Positions 6,566 to 13,746 of a stretch of DNA of 64,000 bases are shown piece after piece. The number at the start of each line of letters is the position of its first letter. Within the stretch, counting starts at the first letter, position 1. The notes under the pieces are model-generated. The model saw nothing but the letters and a program-made list of their open reading frames with translations, had not been told where the DNA came from and ran no database searches. This DNA comes from Candidatus Gottesmanbacteria bacterium (lineage in GTDB: Bacteria > Patescibacteriota > Microgenomatia > UBA10105 > UBA927). The stretch lies in NCBI GenBank assembly GCA_030679255.1, contig JAUXTO010000013.1, positions 18,696 to 82,695 of the forward strand, read 5' to 3'. The translations under genes and the position numbers were made by a program.

Positions 6566-7297
6566 TTACGGTAACAAATATCCTTGTTTAACCAATTGTT
6601 TATGAAATCCCAAGAGGTTCTTTATGTATTCATATGTATCATGGACGAGCCGGACCGACGATTTTTTATCAAAACGGCGGATAAAGAGGACTGGCGCCTC
6701 ACGTATGACGAGTCCTGCGTAGTAGGCATACGTCATAATTTCAGTGTCCCAAAACCAACCATTATGCTTCGTCTTATTGAGAATAGGTAGTATCTTTTTC
6801 CGGTTAAAAAATTTATAGCCGGTCTCCGTATCCTGGAGAGGTATTCCCAACACCGATCGCACGAGCCAGGAATACCCACGGGATAGTATTGACCGATGAA
6901 TAGATGATAACCCTTCACGATACACCCGAAGCCCGGTGACGACATCAGCTTCCCCATCCAGAATCATACGGACAAATGACGGGATATATACCGACGAAAC
7001 TTCAAGATCAATATCGATAAACCCAACAACACCCCCGCGCGCAATGGCAATTCCATCCCGCACCGTTTTTCCCCTCCCTTGATTGACCGGGTGATAGAGT
7101 GCCCGGAAATTTTTGTTCTTTTTGACGAGTGACGCAATGATCTCCCTCGTCCCATCAGTACTTTTATCATCCACAAATATAAGTTCATAGGAAAACACAC
7201 TATCATCCAGCTCCGACGTTATACGGGTAACACTCTCCCGCAGAAGATTTTCTTCGTTATAGCAGGCGATGATGAGAGATAGATCAATATACTTCAT
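6566..7297 (-). CDS. GT2 polyprenol-phosphate glycosyltransferase (DPM1/GtrB/ArnC-like)
   Basis: [26 protein letters not shown].. GT-A motifs; 243 aa. Its first ~15 codons recur as decayed remnants at 8745-8775, 11845-11895, 13321-13374 and 13665-13715. Confidence 0.8.
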
Positions 7298-7300
7298 TCG

Positions 7301-7999
7301 TTAAAGAAAATGCATCGTCTTTTTGATTAAACTCTCAAGTTCTCCTATTAGCTTTGCCTTGGCCCAATCTTTTTGTGACTCGGTCAGAACCTCTCCTAGT
7401 CCAACGAGTATTTTCTTTGAGTCCCGGTTCGATACAAATTCCAAAAGTGATTTATAGAAATCTTTCGGCTGCTTACCAGTTCGATGTCTGATGATGTCAT
7501 AATTGATGTCTGTCGCATATGATGAACTTAAAAAATAGTGAATATCAAACAAATCCCTGTTTGCGATACTTTTTCTTTCCATGGAAGCTACCAGCTTGTG
7601 AGCAATCATATCCCGTATATGCATGGTCTTGACGGTTACACCATAAAACGGTAGTAAGCCGTAATGGTTATATGGATTATCCCTGGTCGATATTTCTACC
7701 TTTATGTGCGCCAAACCCAGGCCATAACTTACTACCCAAAACAGAGTATTAAATTTTGTACTATAGTCCTTGATATCGTATTTAGCAGATAATAATTGCG
7801 TCATCTGATCTCCTACCCCATCACTCTGAGACAGGAGATCAAAATCCAAATCTACGGAAAACCGAGGTAACTTATAAAAAAGCATCGCCGCTGTACCGCC
7901 TTTAAAGCCCAAAATAGGGCTCAGTGTGCTATTTTTGTAAATATCGAGCAAAATATTGGTCAGGTGTGTCTTGTGTTTGGTAATATCAAGCGCTTTCAT
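7301..7999 (-). CDS. AbiEii/AbiGii-family nucleotidyltransferase toxin (type IV toxin-antitoxin)
   Basis: GFKGGTAAMLFYKLPRFSVDLDFD motif. ATGA overlap with the upstream AbiEi gene. Confidence 0.8.
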   Translation of the reverse strand: MKALDITKHKTHLTNILLDIYKNSTLSPILGFKGGTAAMLFYKLPRFSVDLDFDLLSQSDGVGDQMTQLLSAKYDIKDYSTKFNTLFWVVSYGLGLAHIKVEISTRDNPYNHYGLLPFYGVTVKTMHIRDMIAHKLVASMERKSIANRDLFDIHYFLSSSYATDINYDIIRHRTGKQPKDFYKSLLEFVSNRDSKKILVGLGEVLTESQKDWAKAKLIGELESLIKKTMHFL

Positions 8000-8571
8000 A
8001 CGATGGTATATTTATTGATAAATCCTGCAATAACCGTATTGTTTCCGTACACATCGGTATTCAAATTCCTCATCAGCTCCCAATGAATATCACGCAAATT
8101 GTCAAAAAATGCATCTCCATCCAAATATAATGTATCGCACAGAGCCCGTTCCGGTGTAGCCTTATGGACACCGTCTACAAATATTGTTCCGATATGGTTG
8201 AGCAAAATATCATCTTTGATTTTTCGATAGATATATTTTTGACCATCAACTTCATATATTTCCGATCTCTGGGATACGGCGTATATGTCCGAATAGGGCT
8301 GAAATATGATTCCTACTTCCTGCAATACGGTGTAGAGGCTTATATAGGAAGGAGTTCTAAACTTATTGGCAAACTCTATCCTGGAATAATCGTTGGAAAA
8401 TGCATAAATACCCCGCGTAATTCTTTTTACATCCTTCTTTTTGGTCGCATATTTCAGAGCAGAATACAATTTGGCGCCACTATATCCTGCAACTTGTTGC
8501 GACAAATCAGAAACCAAATAAACAGTTTGACGGGAATTTTTACCTATGGATAACGCTTTTATATACCCCAT
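7996..8571 (-). CDS. AbiEi-family antitoxin / transcriptional autoregulator
   Basis: About 190 aa, immediately upstream of and translationally coupled to the AbiEii toxin. Family assignment rests on architecture plus sequence character. Confidence 0.65.
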   Translation of the reverse strand: MGYIKALSIGKNSRQTVYLVSDLSQQVAGYSGAKLYSALKYATKKKDVKRITRGIYAFSNDYSRIEFANKFRTPSYISLYTVLQEVGIIFQPYSDIYAVSQRSEIYEVDGQKYIYRKIKDDILLNHIGTIFVDGVHKATPERALCDTLYLDGDAFFDNLRDIHWELMRNLNTDVYGNNTVIAGFINKYTIV

Positions 8572-8619
8572 ATCACCCCGAAGTGTAAATTATTTCCATT
8601 TCCATGTCAAGAGAATCGA

Positions 8620-8740
8620 TTTAAAATAAAGACTCAGTGGGCTTTATATGATCAAGTGTTAGCTTACTATACAAAAATGTACAGTATCCTTACATTGATC
8701 ACAAGGAGATCTTTAAACACAGTAGCTTTTCCTCGTTTAA
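8620..8740. promoter_or_regulatory. Conserved ~100-bp element, copy 1, upstream of AbiEi #1. It contains the inverted repeat TGATCAAGTGT..N33..ACATTGATCA and is a candidate AbiEi operator/promoter.
   Basis: Near-identical copies occur at 10180-10290 and 13560-13660. Confidence 0.5.
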
Positions 8741-8781
8741 CAGGCGATCACGAGGGAAAGAACTGGTTAATTCATATTCTG

Positions 8782-9567
8782 CTATTTCGCCAATTCTCCA
8801 AAAAAATCCAACCTATCTGCCTGCTTTTCATCAAAGAGAAACGGCCGGAGTTTAATTTTATACCGCGAAAGCGATGAATATTCCAAGTCAAATTTCTTCC
8901 GTGCTCTATCCATTATATCAACCGGTATATGATTTGTTTTGGCAAAAGTTAGGTCTGGTTTGATCCCACGGGATAGAAGCCAAACGAGATCATATAAATC
9001 GCGAGGTTGGGTTTCCCCTCTTCCTACATACGCTGCTAACTTTTCTACCATCATCTGCTCAAGCGATTTGGTGACAACTGTGGCCAAAAAGCCATAACGA
9101 TTCACGAAAACCGTTTCCCGTATTTGTCCCCGCCAAGAGTATTCAATGTCCAGTTTAATCATCAATTTTTCATCTTTATTAGGACTCAGCTGAAGCTGAG
9201 TGAGTAATCCCGGAAAACGCAATTCGAAATAGCTTCTCTTTATCGTCTTATTTCGATGGAGTTCTACAGTAATATCCTCCTGCTGTAGCCTCTGGAGTAC
9301 GATATTCACGAGTAGGTGTACTTGAGGGGAAGGTATTCCGACCGCATCAAAATCCAAATCCTCGGAAAAGCGGTCAAGTCCGCGTAATATTCGGAGTGCT
9401 GTTCCACCGACAAAAAAAAGGTTTTGAGAAATTTTCTCCTGATAGAGAAACGAGAGAATTTTCGTCTGCAAATACTCCCGCAGAATTGCGCGTCGTTTCT
9501 CCGGGGGCAATCCATACGTCCGGGCAAAACTCAGGATTTCAGTAAAATTGACAATGGCATTATTCAT
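8782..9567 (-). CDS. AbiEii-family nucleotidyltransferase toxin, copy 2
   Basis: FFVGGTALRILRGLDRFSEDLDFD motif. Start taken at the internal Met (MNNAIV..), which gives an ATGA overlap with AbiEi #2. Confidence 0.75.
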   Translation of the reverse strand: MNNAIVNFTEILSFARTYGLPPEKRRAILREYLQTKILSFLYQEKISQNLFFVGGTALRILRGLDRFSEDLDFDAVGIPSPQVHLLVNIVLQRLQQEDITVELHRNKTIKRSYFELRFPGLLTQLQLSPNKDEKLMIKLDIEYSWRGQIRETVFVNRYGFLATVVTKSLEQMMVEKLAAYVGRGETQPRDLYDLVWLLSRGIKPDLTFAKTNHIPVDIMDRARKKFDLEYSSLSRYKIKLRPFLFDEKQADRLDFFGELAK

Positions 9568-10118
9568 GACAGTTTTATTTCCTGTATCCACTTCGGAAAA
9601 TGAACGGCATATTCACGGTATCGTTTCCAGTCCCAATCGTTAAGCTGTAAGCGCATTTCCGGTGAAATGCTCCGTATCCGTCGTAAATAAAAGTAATCCA
9701 AAAGCGCCTTTTCTTTGTACGCTATGGCAAACGGCGTTTGAGAGAAACCAAAAAAAAGTGCACGATCAACTTTGAAATAATGATATACCCCAAACCCCGT
9801 TTCAATTTTTTTCGTAGTAACCGGCGTGACACAACTGACCGCCATGGGAATATCCGGGATAATCCCGTAGTAATTGAGTGCTGTTTCCAAACTGACGTAG
9901 GATGGGAAATAGAGTTGTTCGGCCAACGCAAGTTCGTCAATGGTACTTTTGTCAAAACAATATAATCCCCGCTTAAGCTGAGAAATAAACCCCTTTTTTA
10001 CGAAACGGTAGAGCTGGGTCCTGATCGTCGAAGATTGCTCCGCTGGGAAAAGCTTCGCCACATCTAAAATCCGGAAATAATTTCCCTCAATTTGTTTCCT
10101 TAGATCTAAATACCTCAT
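9564..10118 (-). CDS. AbiEi-family antitoxin, copy 2
   Basis: 184 aa, upstream of and coupled to AbiEii #2. Same architecture as copies 1 and 3. Confidence 0.6.
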   Translation of the reverse strand: MRYLDLRKQIEGNYFRILDVAKLFPAEQSSTIRTQLYRFVKKGFISQLKRGLYCFDKSTIDELALAEQLYFPSYVSLETALNYYGIIPDIPMAVSCVTPVTTKKIETGFGVYHYFKVDRALFFGFSQTPFAIAYKEKALLDYFYLRRIRSISPEMRLQLNDWDWKRYREYAVHFPKWIQEIKLS

Positions 10119-10179
10119 TAACAGATAATATACAAAAATGTCTATTATTTGTCAACAACTAAATAGCACCATTTAGTAA

Positions 10180-10290
10180 CAAAATAATTGAGACTCGGTC
10201 ATCCTTATCTGATCAAATGTTACATTACTATACAAAAATGTACAGTATCCTTACATTGATCACAAGGAGATCTTTAAACACAGCACCATG
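10180..10290. promoter_or_regulatory. Conserved ~100-bp element, copy 2, upstream of AbiEi #2
   Basis: ..atgttacattactatacaaaaatgtacagtatccttacattgatcacaaggagatctttaaacaca is almost identical to 8660-8740. Confidence 0.5.
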
Positions 10291-10378
10291 GAATATGCCC
10301 ATCTTCTTCTAGGACATTTACATCAAATCTTTTTGGCATAAAATCGGACGGCCTCCTTACTTTTTTTGAGACGAATCC

Positions 10379-11098
10379 TCAACTGTTTCGCTCGATCTCC
10401 CTTTCTAAAGCATTACGGAAGTCCCGGATCATCAAAATCTGGCTCTTTGGAAGAAACAGTGACAGCTCTCTGTCAAAACTCAATGTAGTCTTAGATAGTA
10501 ATTGCTTCACTTTATATAACTGTTTTTTTTGGTCAGGTGTAAGTAAATTCGCCCGTAATAAAAAATATATGTCATAAAAATCACGAGCCTTCTGACGGTC
10601 AAATAATGCATGAAACTTACCTTCAATTAAATTGAAGGTAGATAAACTTTTTACGGGATAGAGAGAAACAAAATCATTTTCAACAGTAAATATCTCACCA
10701 GGTACAACATCTTTTCGAAACGATATTTCTAAGTGAATAGTAATAGGCTGACCAATATTTTTAAATAGTACAATACAAAGATAACCACCGCTAGTGGTTT
10801 TACTCTCTTTGATGTCTACCTCAATTCCTTCACGTGAGACATCGATGAGCGTCTCCTGCAAAATGTTTTCCCATATGCCACTGGTATGCACAGTAGTGTC
10901 AAAATCTAAATCCTCAGAAAAACGGGGGCTTCTATAGAGTAGTCGAAGTGCAGTTCCTCCTTTAAAATATAAATCTTTTGCTTCCGGTTTTTGGAAAAGA
11001 TAACTTAAGAGCACATGTTGTCCATATTCCCGATTTATATTTATATCCGGAGTTTGATATTTGATAGCAAGTTTTTGTAAATATGATGAACTAAGCAT
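10379..11098 (-). CDS. AbiEii-family nucleotidyltransferase toxin, copy 3 (more divergent)
   Basis: YFKGGTALRLLYRSPRFSEDLDFD motif. Confidence 0.75.
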   Translation of the reverse strand: MLSSSYLQKLAIKYQTPDININREYGQHVLLSYLFQKPEAKDLYFKGGTALRLLYRSPRFSEDLDFDTTVHTSGIWENILQETLIDVSREGIEVDIKESKTTSGGYLCIVLFKNIGQPITIHLEISFRKDVVPGEIFTVENDFVSLYPVKSLSTFNLIEGKFHALFDRQKARDFYDIYFLLRANLLTPDQKKQLYKVKQLLSKTTLSFDRELSLFLPKSQILMIRDFRNALEREIERNS

Positions 11099-11100
11099 AG

Positions 11101-11697
11101 TTATTTATCAAACACCTTGGCTACTAAAGCATTTAGAGATTTACTGGCGAAAAGCTTTGTATATATTTTTACCTTGTTTACATCAACAGTTGATAGGTCA
11201 AGGCGCTCTGACAGTGCTCTTCTCCCGAGTGAAACCGCATAGAGATAATCGACAATAGCTTTTTCCGGATCTGCAATAAAAAATCTTTTATGATCTGCTA
11301 CTTTCATTTCATATCCTGTATATGCACGAAGTTTAATAGTGGTATAGCGAAAACTTTTTGAATCAACCATATATTCCCGGGTAGGCTTCGTGGTAGCTGA
11401 AGTTATGGTGTAGACCATATCAGGTAAAATATTGTAATAAGCAAGTGCAAATTCAAATGATAGATATGAAGGGCGGTAAAGTTGATTAGCGATTTCCAAC
11501 TCAGAAGGTGGGTCAGTTTTCAGATAATACATCCCCCGTTTAGCCTGGATAAATAATCCATTCTCAGTACCTTTTTGGAGATAATACAGTGTTTGTCTGT
11601 TCGATAAAGAAAGCAATACGCCAAACTCCCGCGCTGAAAATATTGGGAGATGCTTGGCTAACAATGTATCTCTTATGCCTAAAAATGATGTTTTCAT
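11101..11697 (-). CDS. AbiEi-family antitoxin, copy 3
   Basis: 198 aa, immediately upstream of AbiEii #3, with a 2-nt gap. Confidence 0.6.
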   Translation of the reverse strand: MKTSFLGIRDTLLAKHLPIFSAREFGVLLSLSNRQTLYYLQKGTENGLFIQAKRGMYYLKTDPPSELEIANQLYRPSYLSFEFALAYYNILPDMVYTITSATTKPTREYMVDSKSFRYTTIKLRAYTGYEMKVADHKRFFIADPEKAIVDYLYAVSLGRRALSERLDLSTVDVNKVKIYTKLFASKSLNALVAKVFDK

Positions 11698-11931
11698 TTC
11701 ATTTATTACTTAAATATAGGTAATTACTGAAATGAGTATATCCCACTAGATAGATTTTGTCAACTATATCCATGCCTTGACAAAAAAACCAGACAGGCAC
11801 GCTTTTTTCGTTTCATAGTCCTATGAAGTCGTTTGCCCGTAGAAACTTTTCTTCATTGTGGGCAGGCGATGATGTGAGGGAGATCCGATTTCTTGAATAA
11901 ATTCGATGTCATCTAAAACTTGACTCACCGT

Positions 11932-13242
11932 TTATTCTCTTGAGAGAGTAGTCGAAAGCCACTTCCATAATGGTGTGTAAATGATTTCTATACCATTCAT
12001 AATACTAACCCCTTCCACGTCCCATGTAATCAATTGCCCGGATGATTGACCAAGCGATTTGGCAGCCTTTATAAGTGCCCTCGTCTCCCGTTCCGGTACT
12101 TCAGGCATGCTTGAAGCGAACGTTACCTGTATAAGTTCCTTTACGGTTTTATTATGCAATAGAACAAAATCAACTTCGTGATCTGAATAATCTTTCCAGT
12201 ACGCCACGTCATATCGGGGATCCCACGTGCTTCGTATATGTAATGCATGGAATACAGCCTGCTCCATCATGTATCCAAAATTTGTTGATACCGTGCTACT
12301 GAAATGAGAGGAAAAATAATTATCTACCAGATACGACTTCTTCACTGTTTGTATTCTTTTTTTTACATTTGCAGAAAATACCTCAAGACGGGCAATAAAA
12401 AATGACCACTCCAGCCAGTGCATGTATCGAATAACGGTCGCTTTACTTATTGCGTGTCCCGTCCCCTTGAGAGAGTTTGCTAATTTGGAATATGTATAGC
12501 TTCTCGTATTCGGCAACAAGCGTAATAAATCAGTAAACGCCTCTTTATTGCGCAGCTTATACCGGTCTACTATATCCCGATCTACAAAAGAAGAAAAGTA
12601 ATCCGCCAAAATGAGCGGCCGCAACCCTTCCTCTGCAAGCACTATCTCCGGCAGACCGCCAAACAATAGATATTCACGTAAAAGATTAAGAACGTGAGCA
12701 TGGGACACGCTCTGTATATCTACATCACGGAAACGCAAAAATTCATTCCAGTTCAAAGGAAACATGGGAATTGTAATGGTTTGTCCTCGAAGTTCTGTGG
12801 GAATCTCGCGCGAGGAAAGTTTTGAAGACGAACCGGAAAGAACAAGCCGGTGCTGTGTCGTCTCGTTTATTCGCCGTGCCCACATACTCCACTGGGGTAT
12901 CTCCTGTATCTCATCCATTAAAAGTACAAATGACTGGTTACCTTTTAGTTCCGTAAGTAAATCGGGAAGCATACTCAAAATCTCTGTTTTTTTCGGTACG
13001 CGCTCATCCTCAAAGTTTATATAGACACAACGTTCTTTCCCGTATTTTTGCGCAAAATCAAGAAGGCTGAATGTCTTCCCCACTCGTCTAAAACCGACGA
13101 CGGATACAATTTTTCGGACGTTAGGATCAAAATATGAGACTAAATTCACATCACGGGATTTTATTACGGGTAAGGGATTATTCCACCAATTCCTCACGAG
13201 GTCATTCAAAAGTTGTTTCATAATCGAATGTCTATGATACAA
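11932..13242 (-). CDS. AAA+ ATPase of the DUF4143/AAA_14 type
   Basis: P-loop VGFRRVGKTFSL, Walker B LLMDEIQ. 436 aa. The common stand-alone ATP-binding-protein family. Confidence 0.75.
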   Translation of the reverse strand: MYHRHSIMKQLLNDLVRNWWNNPLPVIKSRDVNLVSYFDPNVRKIVSVVGFRRVGKTFSLLDFAQKYGKERCVYINFEDERVPKKTEILSMLPDLLTELKGNQSFVLLMDEIQEIPQWSMWARRINETTQHRLVLSGSSSKLSSREIPTELRGQTITIPMFPLNWNEFLRFRDVDIQSVSHAHVLNLLREYLLFGGLPEIVLAEEGLRPLILADYFSSFVDRDIVDRYKLRNKEAFTDLLRLLPNTRSYTYSKLANSLKGTGHAISKATVIRYMHWLEWSFFIARLEVFSANVKKRIQTVKKSYLVDNYFSSHFSSTVSTNFGYMMEQAVFHALHIRSTWDPRYDVAYWKDYSDHEVDFVLLHNKTVKELIQVTFASSMPEVPERETRALIKAAKSLGQSSGQLITWDVEGVSIMNGIEIIYTPLWKWLSTTLSRE

Positions 13243-13273
13243 TATTCATTAATCCTGTATTATAGTATCAATT

Positions 13274-13363
13274 CTACACACGATTGTCAATAATCCCAAC
13301 GTTCTCCCCCAGAAGCTTTTCTTCGTTATAGCAGGCGATGAGAGAGAGGTCAACGTGCTTCAT
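13274..13363 (-). pseudogene. Remnant of the GT2 (6566-7297) N-terminus
   Basis: Minus-strand translation MKHVDLSLIACYNEEKLLGENVGIIDNRV*, versus the intact gene [19 protein letters not shown]. Nucleotides 13321-13374 align to 7251-7304. Confidence 0.7.
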
Positions 13364-13376
13364 TCGTTAAATCTTT

Positions 13377-13511
13377 CTATTTGGTCGCATATTTCAGAGC
13401 AGAATACAATTTGGCGCCACTATATCCTGCAACTTGTTGTGATAAATCCGAAACCAAATAAACAGTTTGACGGGAATTTTTACCTATGGATAACGATTTT
13501 ATATACCCCAT
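13377..13511 (-). pseudogene. Truncated AbiEi N-terminal remnant (44 codons then stop)
   Basis: Translates MGYIKSLSIGKNSRQTVYLVSDLSQQVAGYSGAKLYSALKYATK*, nearly identical to the first 44 aa of AbiEi #1. 13380-13560 aligns to 8441-8620. Confidence 0.75.
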
Positions 13512-13559
13512 ATCACCCTGAGGTGTAAATTATTTCCATTTCCACGTCAAGAGAATCTA

Positions 13560-13660
13560 TTTAAAATTGAGACTTAGTCGTCCTTATATGATCAAGTGTT
13601 AGCTTACTATACATAAATGTACATTATCGTGACACTGATCACACGAAAATCTTTCCATGT
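13560..13660. promoter_or_regulatory. Conserved ~100-bp element, copy 3 (orphan, upstream of the AbiEi remnant)
   Basis: Aligns to 8620-8740 with a few substitutions. Confidence 0.5.
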
Positions 13661-13746
13661 AGTAGCTAGTCTTCATTGTAGCAGGCGGTGATGAGAGAGA
13701 TCCGATTTCTTCATTTGACCGATTGTAACATACGACCAAATCCAAA

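Follow-up and report, generated by a model that had tools for sequence, protein, structure and literature searches.

Here we report the analysis of a repeated DNA element, named E, that occurs in three copies (E1, E2, and E3) among AbiE toxin-antitoxin cassettes in a metagenome-assembled genome of Candidatus Gottesmanbacteria, a member of the candidate phyla radiation (CPR). The analysed window is a 64,000-nt stretch of contig JAUXTO010000013.1 (positions 18,696 to 82,695). A first-pass annotation of this DNA had proposed the element as a strong candidate for the autoregulatory operator and promoter of the neighbouring AbiEi antitoxin genes. To judge from sequence, it is not supported that any AbiE operon has its promoter or primary operator in E: promoters and conserved inverted repeats lie between E and the start codons, and E is missing in related loci bar one. 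The reading that we prefer, and put forward tentatively, is that E may be a lineage-specific junction module of ~100 bp that includes an AbiEi2-type operator as a copy or relic, supplies homology for recombination, and possibly acts as a secondary AbiEi site. The inverted repeats at the proximal promoters, by comparison, are likely the autoregulatory operators of the AbiEi genes. Throughout, the AbiE genes are numbered AbiEi1/AbiEii1 to AbiEi3/AbiEii3, and the proximal promoters of the three AbiEi genes are named P1 to P3.

Sequence and structure of element E

Repeat finding identified E as three same-strand direct repeats of 98 nt, which are located at junctions between the AbiE cassettes, remnants of other genes, and copies of the 5' end of the glycosyltransferase gene GT2 (termed GT2', fragments (a) to (d)). 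Every cassette gene is encoded on the minus strand, and the region is transcribed leftwards.

8625-8722, minus strand: E1, repeat family D2 (nhmmer E = 4.5e-33), between GT2' fragment (d) and the AbiEi1 promoter
8649-8701, minus strand: nested imperfect palindrome of E1, 53 nt, with outer arms TGATCAATGT / ACACTTGATCA, from pattern match and fold
10186-10283, minus strand: E2, palindrome at 10210-10262, flanked by the AbiEi2 promoter and by a hicB-like 5' fragment that lies downstream of AbiEii3
13565-13662, minus strand: E3, palindrome at 13589-13641, flanked by the truncated AbiEi1 stub and by copy (a), the original 5' end of GT2

The three copies upstream of AbiEi1, AbiEi2, and the orphan AbiEi stub agree with the first-pass annotation, which had called them near-identical. 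E1 and E2 have 89% identity and form a mosaic of well and poorly matching segments, and the description was overstated for E3, which is 81% identical to E1 (79/98). A 37-nt core is exactly shared by E1 and E2 and had no match in 100 shuffles of the sequence. The three copies are the only matches in the window to a gapped pattern spanning both inverted repeats, for which 0 were expected, and a four-sequence nhmmer profile built with hmmbuild --dna detected no further copies in the window. As noted before, there is no copy upstream of AbiEi3.

The inverted repeat and the TGTACA motif described earlier are real and are parts of the nested 53-nt palindrome. In E1, an outer TGATCA..TGATCA repeat surrounds an imperfect inner 9-4-9 palindrome at 8686-8665 (TACTGTACA-TTTT-TGTATAGTA); read in the gene direction, the copy contains CTGTGTTTAAAGATCTCCTTG-TGATCAATGTAAGGATACTGTACA-TTTT-TGTATAGTAAGCTAACACTTGATCA-TATAAAG... 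and includes TGTACA. With arms of 24 and 25 nt and a 4-nt spacer, E conforms to the format of AbiEi operators, in which a short spacer separates two inverted repeats of ~23 bp. The centre of the E1 palindrome is ~65 nt upstream of the -35 element and ~105 nt upstream of the ATG.

Two other identities of E were tried and rejected. Small open reading frames do not persist across the copies, as a 73-aa plus-strand frame in E1 corresponds to 30 aa in E2 and is interrupted in E3, and the sense-strand ATGs in E run straight into stop codons. Likeness to the LexA and IHF consensus sequences was dropped because both spacing and sequence misfit. A plus-strand TTTCCA-17-TAAAAT site adjoins E1 and E3 and has no counterpart at E2.

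Proximal promoters and candidate AbiEi operators

In a consensus scan in gene orientation, the best promoter-like sites of the 7-14 kb region were found between E and the start codons. They match the consensus at 10-11/12 positions, with a perfect TTGACA and a 17-nt spacer, at 8610-8582 (AbiEi1), 10155-10127 (AbiEi2), 11763-11735 (AbiEi3), and 13290-13262 (an ATPase gene of the same array). Each such AbiEi promoter (TTGACA-17-TAnnnT) overlaps or precedes an inverted repeat of its own.

8610-8580, minus strand: P1 (AbiEi1), -35 TTGACA at 8610-8605, -10 TACACT at 8587-8582, inverted repeat GAAATGGAAAT-A-ATTTACACTTC at 8602-8580
10155-10118, minus strand: P2 (AbiEi2), 38-bp palindrome TTGACAAATAATAGACA-TTTT-TGTATATTATCTGTTAA from the -35 element to the ATG, -10 TATATT at 10132-10127
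11763-11695, minus strand: P3 (AbiEi3), TTGACA-17-TATACT, inverted repeat CATTTCAGTAATTAC-N10-GTAATAAATGAAATG (11734-11695) extending into the ATG

An inverted repeat that overlaps its own promoter is thus present at 8602-8580, 10155-10118, and 11734-11695, and not at E. The layout of P1, with TTGACA upstream of an inverted repeat that lies 8-12 nt from the start codon, was found in 34 AbiEi1-family loci. The two arms of this repeat change jointly between subfamilies (GAAATGTAA/TTACACTTC, GTGTAA/TTACAC, GAATACAGAAT/ATTCAGTATTC, TGTAGTACTGAA/TTCAGGACTACA, AACTGTAA/TTACAGTT, TCGTAA/TTACGA, ACTGTAA/TTACAGT, and TATTACGTAA/TTACGTATTA), and joint change of this kind is the hallmark of co-evolution between an operator and its repressor. 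P2 is kept in eight AbiEi2-family loci (L055-L062) as TTGACA-AATAATAGACA-nnnnnG-TATATT-ATCTnTTA-ATG, in which only the spacer varies, and P3 is kept in two AbiEi3-family loci (L106 and L107). Since the proximal repeats overlap promoters, are conserved in a total of about 45 related CPR loci, and covary in the AbiEi1 family, they are likely the autoregulatory operators of the AbiEi genes.

The P2 palindrome includes the first base of the ATG, so that the AbiEi2 mRNA would be leaderless. The distance from the -10 element to the ATG is 8-10 nt in all three AbiEi families (L002-L038, L055-L062, and L102-L107), which implies leaderless or near-leaderless mRNAs.

Distribution of E in related loci and sequence collections

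For comparison, we fetched the loci of 53 AbiEi1 relatives from species-representative genomes, eight AbiEi2 relatives (L055-L062), the four closest AbiEi1 relatives (L102-L105), and two AbiEii3 relatives (L106 and L107). A search of 69 AbiE loci with blastn and the nhmmer profile found E only in L102 and in L001, a unitig of the same genome. Conservation of E and co-evolution with a cognate antitoxin are therefore not observed: it is absent from 53 + 8 + 5 related loci, with L102 as the only positive.

The L102 locus encodes an AbiEi1 that is 88% identical to that of the window and contains ~100 nt homologous to E, of which only the inner core survives. Both TGATCA arms are gone, as is the long hairpin (-10.4 kcal/mol, z = +0.55). 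A 27-nt core, TGTACATTTTTGTATAGTAATGTAACA, is identical between L102 and E2 (27/27), with flanks at ~58-74% (right flank ~58%, 19/33); the flanks of E are less conserved between the window and L102 than third codon positions. In L103-L105, whose AbiEi proteins are 83-87% identical to AbiEi1, the GT2' fragment is joined almost directly to the -35 element without E. When these loci are aligned, E corresponds to a clean indel flanked by '...AAAGATC' and 'TTAAA...TTGACA', and comparison with L104 and L105 revealed no target-site duplication or terminal inverted repeats at this indel. The possibility that E is the 3' part of the AbiE3 cassette was rejected, as no E was found downstream of that cassette in L106 and L107 (AbiEii 87% and 74% identical).

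Partial resemblance to the core was observed at more distant loci. An exact 15-mer, CTGTACATTTTTGTA, is located 40 nt upstream of the -35 element in L004, where the AbiEi1 homologue is 61% identical, and it recurs with one mismatch in L006. Palindromes of the E-core-like form TGTACA-N4-TGTAC occur within ~100 nt of AbiE borders at the unrelated loci L004 (2392-2406), L006, L016 (3774-3790), and L025 (3778-3794); about 0.3 such sites are expected from base composition in 287 kb, these numbers are small, and the matches may be due to chance.

The strict E pattern had 0 matches in metagenome contigs. The loose pattern had 39, all of them chance-like and with no likeness to E outside the fixed positions, and the E core had 0 matches in viral contigs. 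Together with the 64-kb window, these scans speak against a widespread generic repeat, one of the outcomes that would have told against the earlier annotation. Given its absence from relatives and from the pattern scans, E is, across the material searched, not a generic repeat, and no AbiE family conserves it.

Similarity of E to the probable AbiEi2 operator

Among the promoters of the array, E aligns significantly only with P2, with local alignment z-scores of 4.0-4.8 relative to shuffled controls, vs less than 1.8 for P1, P3, and the ATPase promoter. In this alignment ACATTTTTGTATAGTA is set against ACATTTTTGTATATTA, and 15 of the 16 core bases agree between E2 and P2. E contains a 10-6-10 palindrome, GATACTGTAC-ATTTTT-GTATAGTAAG, with the geometry and spacer of P2 and with half-sites that match at 6-9 of 10 positions. 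A matrix of the P2 half-site ranks the left arm of E3, GATAATGTACA (10/11 to GATAATATACA), 10th among ~128,000 window positions, and the E1/E2 arm about 68th; an A-to-C change in the left arm of E1 and E2 pairs with a G in the right arm, restoring symmetry. From this P2-like geometry, the spacer, and the partial half-site, E most likely derives from an AbiEi2-type operator, as a copy or a relic. A likeness of the outer arms and right flank of E to a degenerate P1 with the AbiEi1 start, seen by eye, was rejected at z-scores of -1.1 to +1.8 relative to shuffles.

E adjoins the AbiE1-type cassette immediately outside its left border. In the scenario that we propose, the starting state would have resembled L102 (AbiE3-like - E - AbiE1 - GT2). 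An AbiE2 unit may then have recombined in through E, giving the order AbiE3 - E2 - AbiE2 - GT2' - E1 - AbiE1 - GT2. Any regulatory role of E would be that of a candidate secondary AbiEi site, distal or decoy, ~65-82 nt upstream of the -35 element. A distal site of this kind would modulate repression and not establish it, comparable to the distal repeat pair of Mycobacterium tuberculosis Rv2827c.

Several observations weigh against this proposal. The distance from the palindrome to the -35 element varies (65 nt at E1, 81 nt at E2, and also 85 nt), and none of the eight AbiEi2-family loci has a distal site, which is seen in this genome only. The P1 half-site matrix scores E poorly, and the ancestral partner of E appears, from E3, E1, and L102, to be AbiE1 and not AbiE2. 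The evidence for constraint is modest, as a perfect 27-nt run relative to L102 has P ~0.03 at a third-codon identity of 80%. Finally, the core is no less preserved in E3, whose neighbour is a dead gene, than in the copies next to live genes, which is what a neutral relic would show.

Recombination at E

The identity between E1 and E2 is concentrated in one segment, which forms a pair of direct repeats.

8665-8722 = 10226-10283, minus strand: 58-nt stretch, 100% identical, direct repeats with a 1,561-nt period

These repeats bracket exactly a 1,561-bp AbiE2 unit that consists of the AbiE2 cassette and one GT2' fragment. L001, an independent assembly unitig of 1,562 nt with the same sequence, has both of its ends inside the 58-nt repeat. 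The promoter-proximal 40 nt of E1 and E2 are just 72% identical; E1 matches E3 over the next 19 nt, and E2 is nearer to E3 over the last 21 nt. Because the 58-nt identity bounds the AbiE2 unit exactly and L001 breaks there, the earlier suggestion that the element was a homology substrate for rearrangement is upheld, and E has, on these repeat boundaries, demonstrably served as recombination homology. The duplicated GT2 5' fragments form a second and more general family of repeats at the cassette borders. In L102, the order is GT2'(codons 1-37) - AbiE3-like - E - AbiE1 - GT2.

Repeated GT2 N-termini mark the same hot spot in L102 (2323-2427 and from 5275), L104 (both ends), and L105 (1368, 2719, and 4029), and a duplicated 5' end of an epimerase gene gives the same architecture in L055 (2825-2926 and from 4448) and L106 (both ends). 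Flanking direct repeats of 16-59 nt were observed at five more AbiE loci (L005, L011, L015, L034, and L062), relative to a noise level of 13 nt in controls. Overall, CPR AbiE cassettes are flanked by duplicated 5' ends, 16 to ~125 nt in length, of the downstream polysaccharide gene (GT2, NAD-dependent epimerase, or the DegT region), and several cassette-sized assembly unitigs end exactly within these flanking repeats. Homologous recombination of circles with a short homology arm, or illegitimate joining followed by selection for an intact gene, are possible mechanisms.

Alternative explanations for E

E could instead be a neutral relic, a piece of an older cassette border or promoter that was carried along by duplication and gene conversion and only provides recombination homology. 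We regard this as rather unlikely, although much of the pattern described above fits it: almost all relatives lack E, the flanks shared with L102 fall below third-codon conservation, and the core of E3 is no more decayed for lying beside a dead gene. E1 and E3 are only 81% identical vs 94% (187/198) for the adjoining promoter and pseudogene stub, and other cassettes drag dead 5' fragments as well (the epimerase and hicB-like fragments and four GT2' copies). Such a relic is harder to reconcile with the 27/27 core run against L102, with the arm change that restores symmetry, and with the 15-mer CTGTACATTTTTGTA at an equivalent position in L004 and, with one mismatch, in L006. Far more improbable is the function first annotated, in which E would serve AbiEi1 and AbiEi2 as both promoter and autoregulatory operator. 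In favor of that function, E is found upstream of AbiEi in 4/4 instances and in one orientation, its two ~24-nt inverted arms with a 4-nt spacer have the format of the Streptococcus agalactiae operator, and it contains a -10-like TATAGT (8669-8664 in E1). However, this hexamer has no acceptable -35 element before it (2-3/6 in E1, E2, and L102), only E3 reaching 9/12, and a promoter within E was rejected on that ground, while canonical promoters with conserved, covarying operators are located downstream of E. Moreover, close AbiE1 cassettes do without E, the L102 copy has no outer inverted repeat, and one operator common to AbiEi1 and AbiEi2 is unlikely because the two proteins are 31% identical and have different proximal operators.

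A function at the RNA level, in which a hairpin of the read-through transcript would insulate, terminate, or stabilize the 3' end between head-to-tail cassettes, is also improbable. A co-oriented gene or gene fragment always precedes E, and the sense strand of E1 folds better than the antisense strand (-24.2 vs -18.1 kcal/mol), because a G-U pair of the inner stem in the sense strand becomes an A-C mismatch in the antisense. The sense folds have z-scores of -5.2 (E1) and -5.1 (E2), but good RNA folding is expected of any DNA palindrome, the fold of E3 is weak (z = -2.5), and the L102 homologue folds no better than shuffled sequence. No intrinsic terminator was detected at E in a terminator consensus scan, the A+T-rich stem being followed by AUAUAAAG and no U-tract, and an Rfam 15 search over 6-15 kb gave no match at E with an E-value of up to 1. 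We give very little credence to E as a recombination signal or small mobile palindrome that drives cassette capture at the GT2 hot spot, similar to integron attC sites, miniature inverted-repeat transposable elements (MITEs), or repetitive extragenic palindromic (REP) sequences. E does lie exactly at cassette junctions of a head-to-tail array at one site, and E1 combines E2-type with E3-type sequence, a hybrid make-up also seen in the attC sites of arrays. Yet the same hot spot has junctions without E (L103-L105), the indel shows neither a target-site duplication nor a terminal inverted repeat, the metagenome and viral pattern scans contained no copies, and ordinary homologous recombination accounts for the exchanges. 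An integron attC identity was dismissed, since E has no GTTRRRY / RYYYAAC boxes, no recombinase gene is encoded in window positions 1-20 kb, and the AbiE1 and ATPase cassettes have no E at their 3' ends; a MITE or REP identity was dismissed with only three copies in the window, all at AbiE junctions, in addition to the negative scans and the missing target-site duplication. A related conjecture, which we consider a long shot, is that E and the duplicated GT2 5' ends would together form a dedicated CPR cassette-capture site, at which small self-promoted defence or toxin-antitoxin cassettes would enter a polysaccharide gene head to tail at its 5' end and the gene start would be regenerated each time. 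Here the E palindrome would be an attC-like folded or protein-bound signal for an enzyme encoded elsewhere, in an integron-like arrangement with no linked integrase.

Genes and cassettes of the array

The array forms an island at 6566-13714 (minus strand) with three AbiE pairs, an AbiEi stub, and a PDC-S01-type ATPase, which are nested in the 5' end of the GT2 glycosyltransferase gene of a polysaccharide locus.

6566-7297, minus strand: intact GT2 gene
7301-8571, minus strand: AbiE1 cassette, with AbiEi1 at 7996-8571 (ATG 8571) and AbiEii1 at 7301-7999, the AbiEii1 stop 3 nt before the GT2 ATG
8718-8776, minus strand: GT2' fragment (d), degenerate, copied from GT2 codons 1 to ~20 and containing stop codons
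8782-10118, minus strand: AbiE2 cassette, with AbiEi2 at 9564-10118 (ATG 10118) and AbiEii2 at 8782-9567
10379-11697, minus strand: AbiE3 cassette, with AbiEi3 at 11101-11697 and AbiEii3 at 10379-11098
11932-13242, minus strand: ATPase cassette (AAA_14/DUF4143) with a match to PDC-S01, a candidate defence family of PADLOC, and with its own promoter TTGACA-17-TACTAT at 13290-13262
13377-13511, minus strand: AbiEi1 stub, 44 aa, the first ~48 codons of AbiEi1 at 98% protein identity
13650-13714, 13298-13363, and 11836-11897, minus strand: other GT2' copies (a), the original GT2 start, (b), and (c), respectively

The three AbiEi/AbiEii pairs were recognized by PADLOC (AbiEi at 1e-36 to 1e-40, AbiEii at 1e-25 to 1e-55), and Pfam domain PF08843 was found in 3/3 toxins. 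In each pair, the AbiEi antitoxin gene overlaps by 4 nt with, or abuts, the gene of the DUF1814 nucleotidyltransferase AbiEii that comes after it, which identifies the pairs as AbiE type IV toxin-antitoxin systems. In the AbiEi1 stub, a deletion joins the ~48 codons to the last bases of an AbiEii gene and to GT2' fragment (b).

In the direction of transcription, the array contains GT2'(a), E3, the AbiEi1 stub, GT2'(b), the PDC-S01 ATPase, GT2'(c), an epimerase-start remnant (11819-11766), and AbiE3, and continues with the hicB-like 5' fragment (10339-10277), E2, AbiE2, GT2'(d), E1, AbiE1, and GT2. The first ~60 nt of GT2 are copied anew after each cassette, and dead 5' fragments of other former neighbour genes accompany the cassettes. 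The epimerase start (ACTATGAAACGAAAAAAG...) precedes the AbiEi3 promoter and has its match in L106, in the gene located after the AbiE3 cassette. The fragment upstream of E2 consists of a Shine-Dalgarno sequence and 21 codons that are hicB-like by eye (MPKRFDVNVLEEDGHIPWCCV); no full-length counterpart was detected when all the fetched loci were searched with tblastn.

At 13714, the native start of GT2 is laid out like the proximal promoters, with TGTTACAAT 7 nt upstream, and its promoter is now ~6.4 kb upstream of the intact GT2 gene. Since that gene starts 3 nt after AbiEii1 and its native promoter is so distant, the downstream polysaccharide operon (GT2, hexapeptide transferase, DegT, epimerases, and GT4, to position ~134) is probably transcribed from the AbiEi1-repressed promoter or by read-through. 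The borders of the AbiE1 unit share an 8-nt inverted match, between GTT(T)AAAGA right after the left GT2' fragment (8711-8720) and TCTTTAAC (7301-7310), with L105 ~1425-1440 as a further instance. As TCTTTAAC comprises the last AbiEii1 codons and is coding sequence, this border match may be a coincidence.

Discussion

For AbiE systems, the useful result of this study is the probable site of regulation. Three divergent AbiEi families of the CPR each have an inverted repeat that overlaps the promoter and appears to co-evolve with the antitoxin, which would bring a new phylum under the model established in S. agalactiae and M. tuberculosis and provides concrete candidate operator sequences. E itself matters chiefly as a marker of cassette shuffling. 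If AbiEi2 does bind E, one antitoxin would touch a neighbouring, non-cognate toxin-antitoxin operon. The broader pattern is probably of more interest than E, namely that a glycosyltransferase or epimerase gene has defence cassettes stacked within its 5' end, with the start of the gene duplicated each time.

Genomic islands are known to accrete in tandem at a single attachment site via repeats, for example at tRNA genes. The array described here has no integrase, tRNA, or defined att core, its units are of 1.3-1.6 kb, and the duplicated target is a gene 5' end of 60-125 nt. It resembles such accretion in that its cassettes are arranged head to tail, with E and partial copies of the target (here the GT2 5' end) between them, and the hybrid repeats fit exchange between repeats.

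In the published model, AbiEi represses transcription via paired inverted repeats within its own promoter (PMC7319586). The S. agalactiae PabiEi operator, in the account of Hampton 2018 given there, has two 23-bp inverted repeats 3 bp apart, which AbiEi binds cooperatively (PMC7319586). Relative to that account, E is tied to AbiEi/AbiEii operons and has two ~24-nt inverted arms with a 4-nt spacer, but unlike the operator it is off the promoter (its centre ~65-82 nt upstream of the -35 element), is not conserved with the antitoxin gene, and is common to two AbiEi proteins of only 31% identity. P1, P2, and P3 fit the operator as so described well, overlapping the -35 element, the -10 element, or the start codon.

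The M. tuberculosis Rv2827c promoter contains four 23-bp inverted repeats between -1 and -131, arranged as one distal pair and one promoter pair; one consensus is common to all four repeats, and binding was demonstrated by electrophoretic mobility shift assay (PMC7319586). Unlike this system, E resembles P2 only and not its usual neighbour P1, and other family members have no E. As a putative binding site, E would nevertheless give a similar layout, with a distal palindrome ~105-120 nt upstream of the start codon in addition to a site overlapping the promoter, and E2 and P2 agree at 15/16 core bases.

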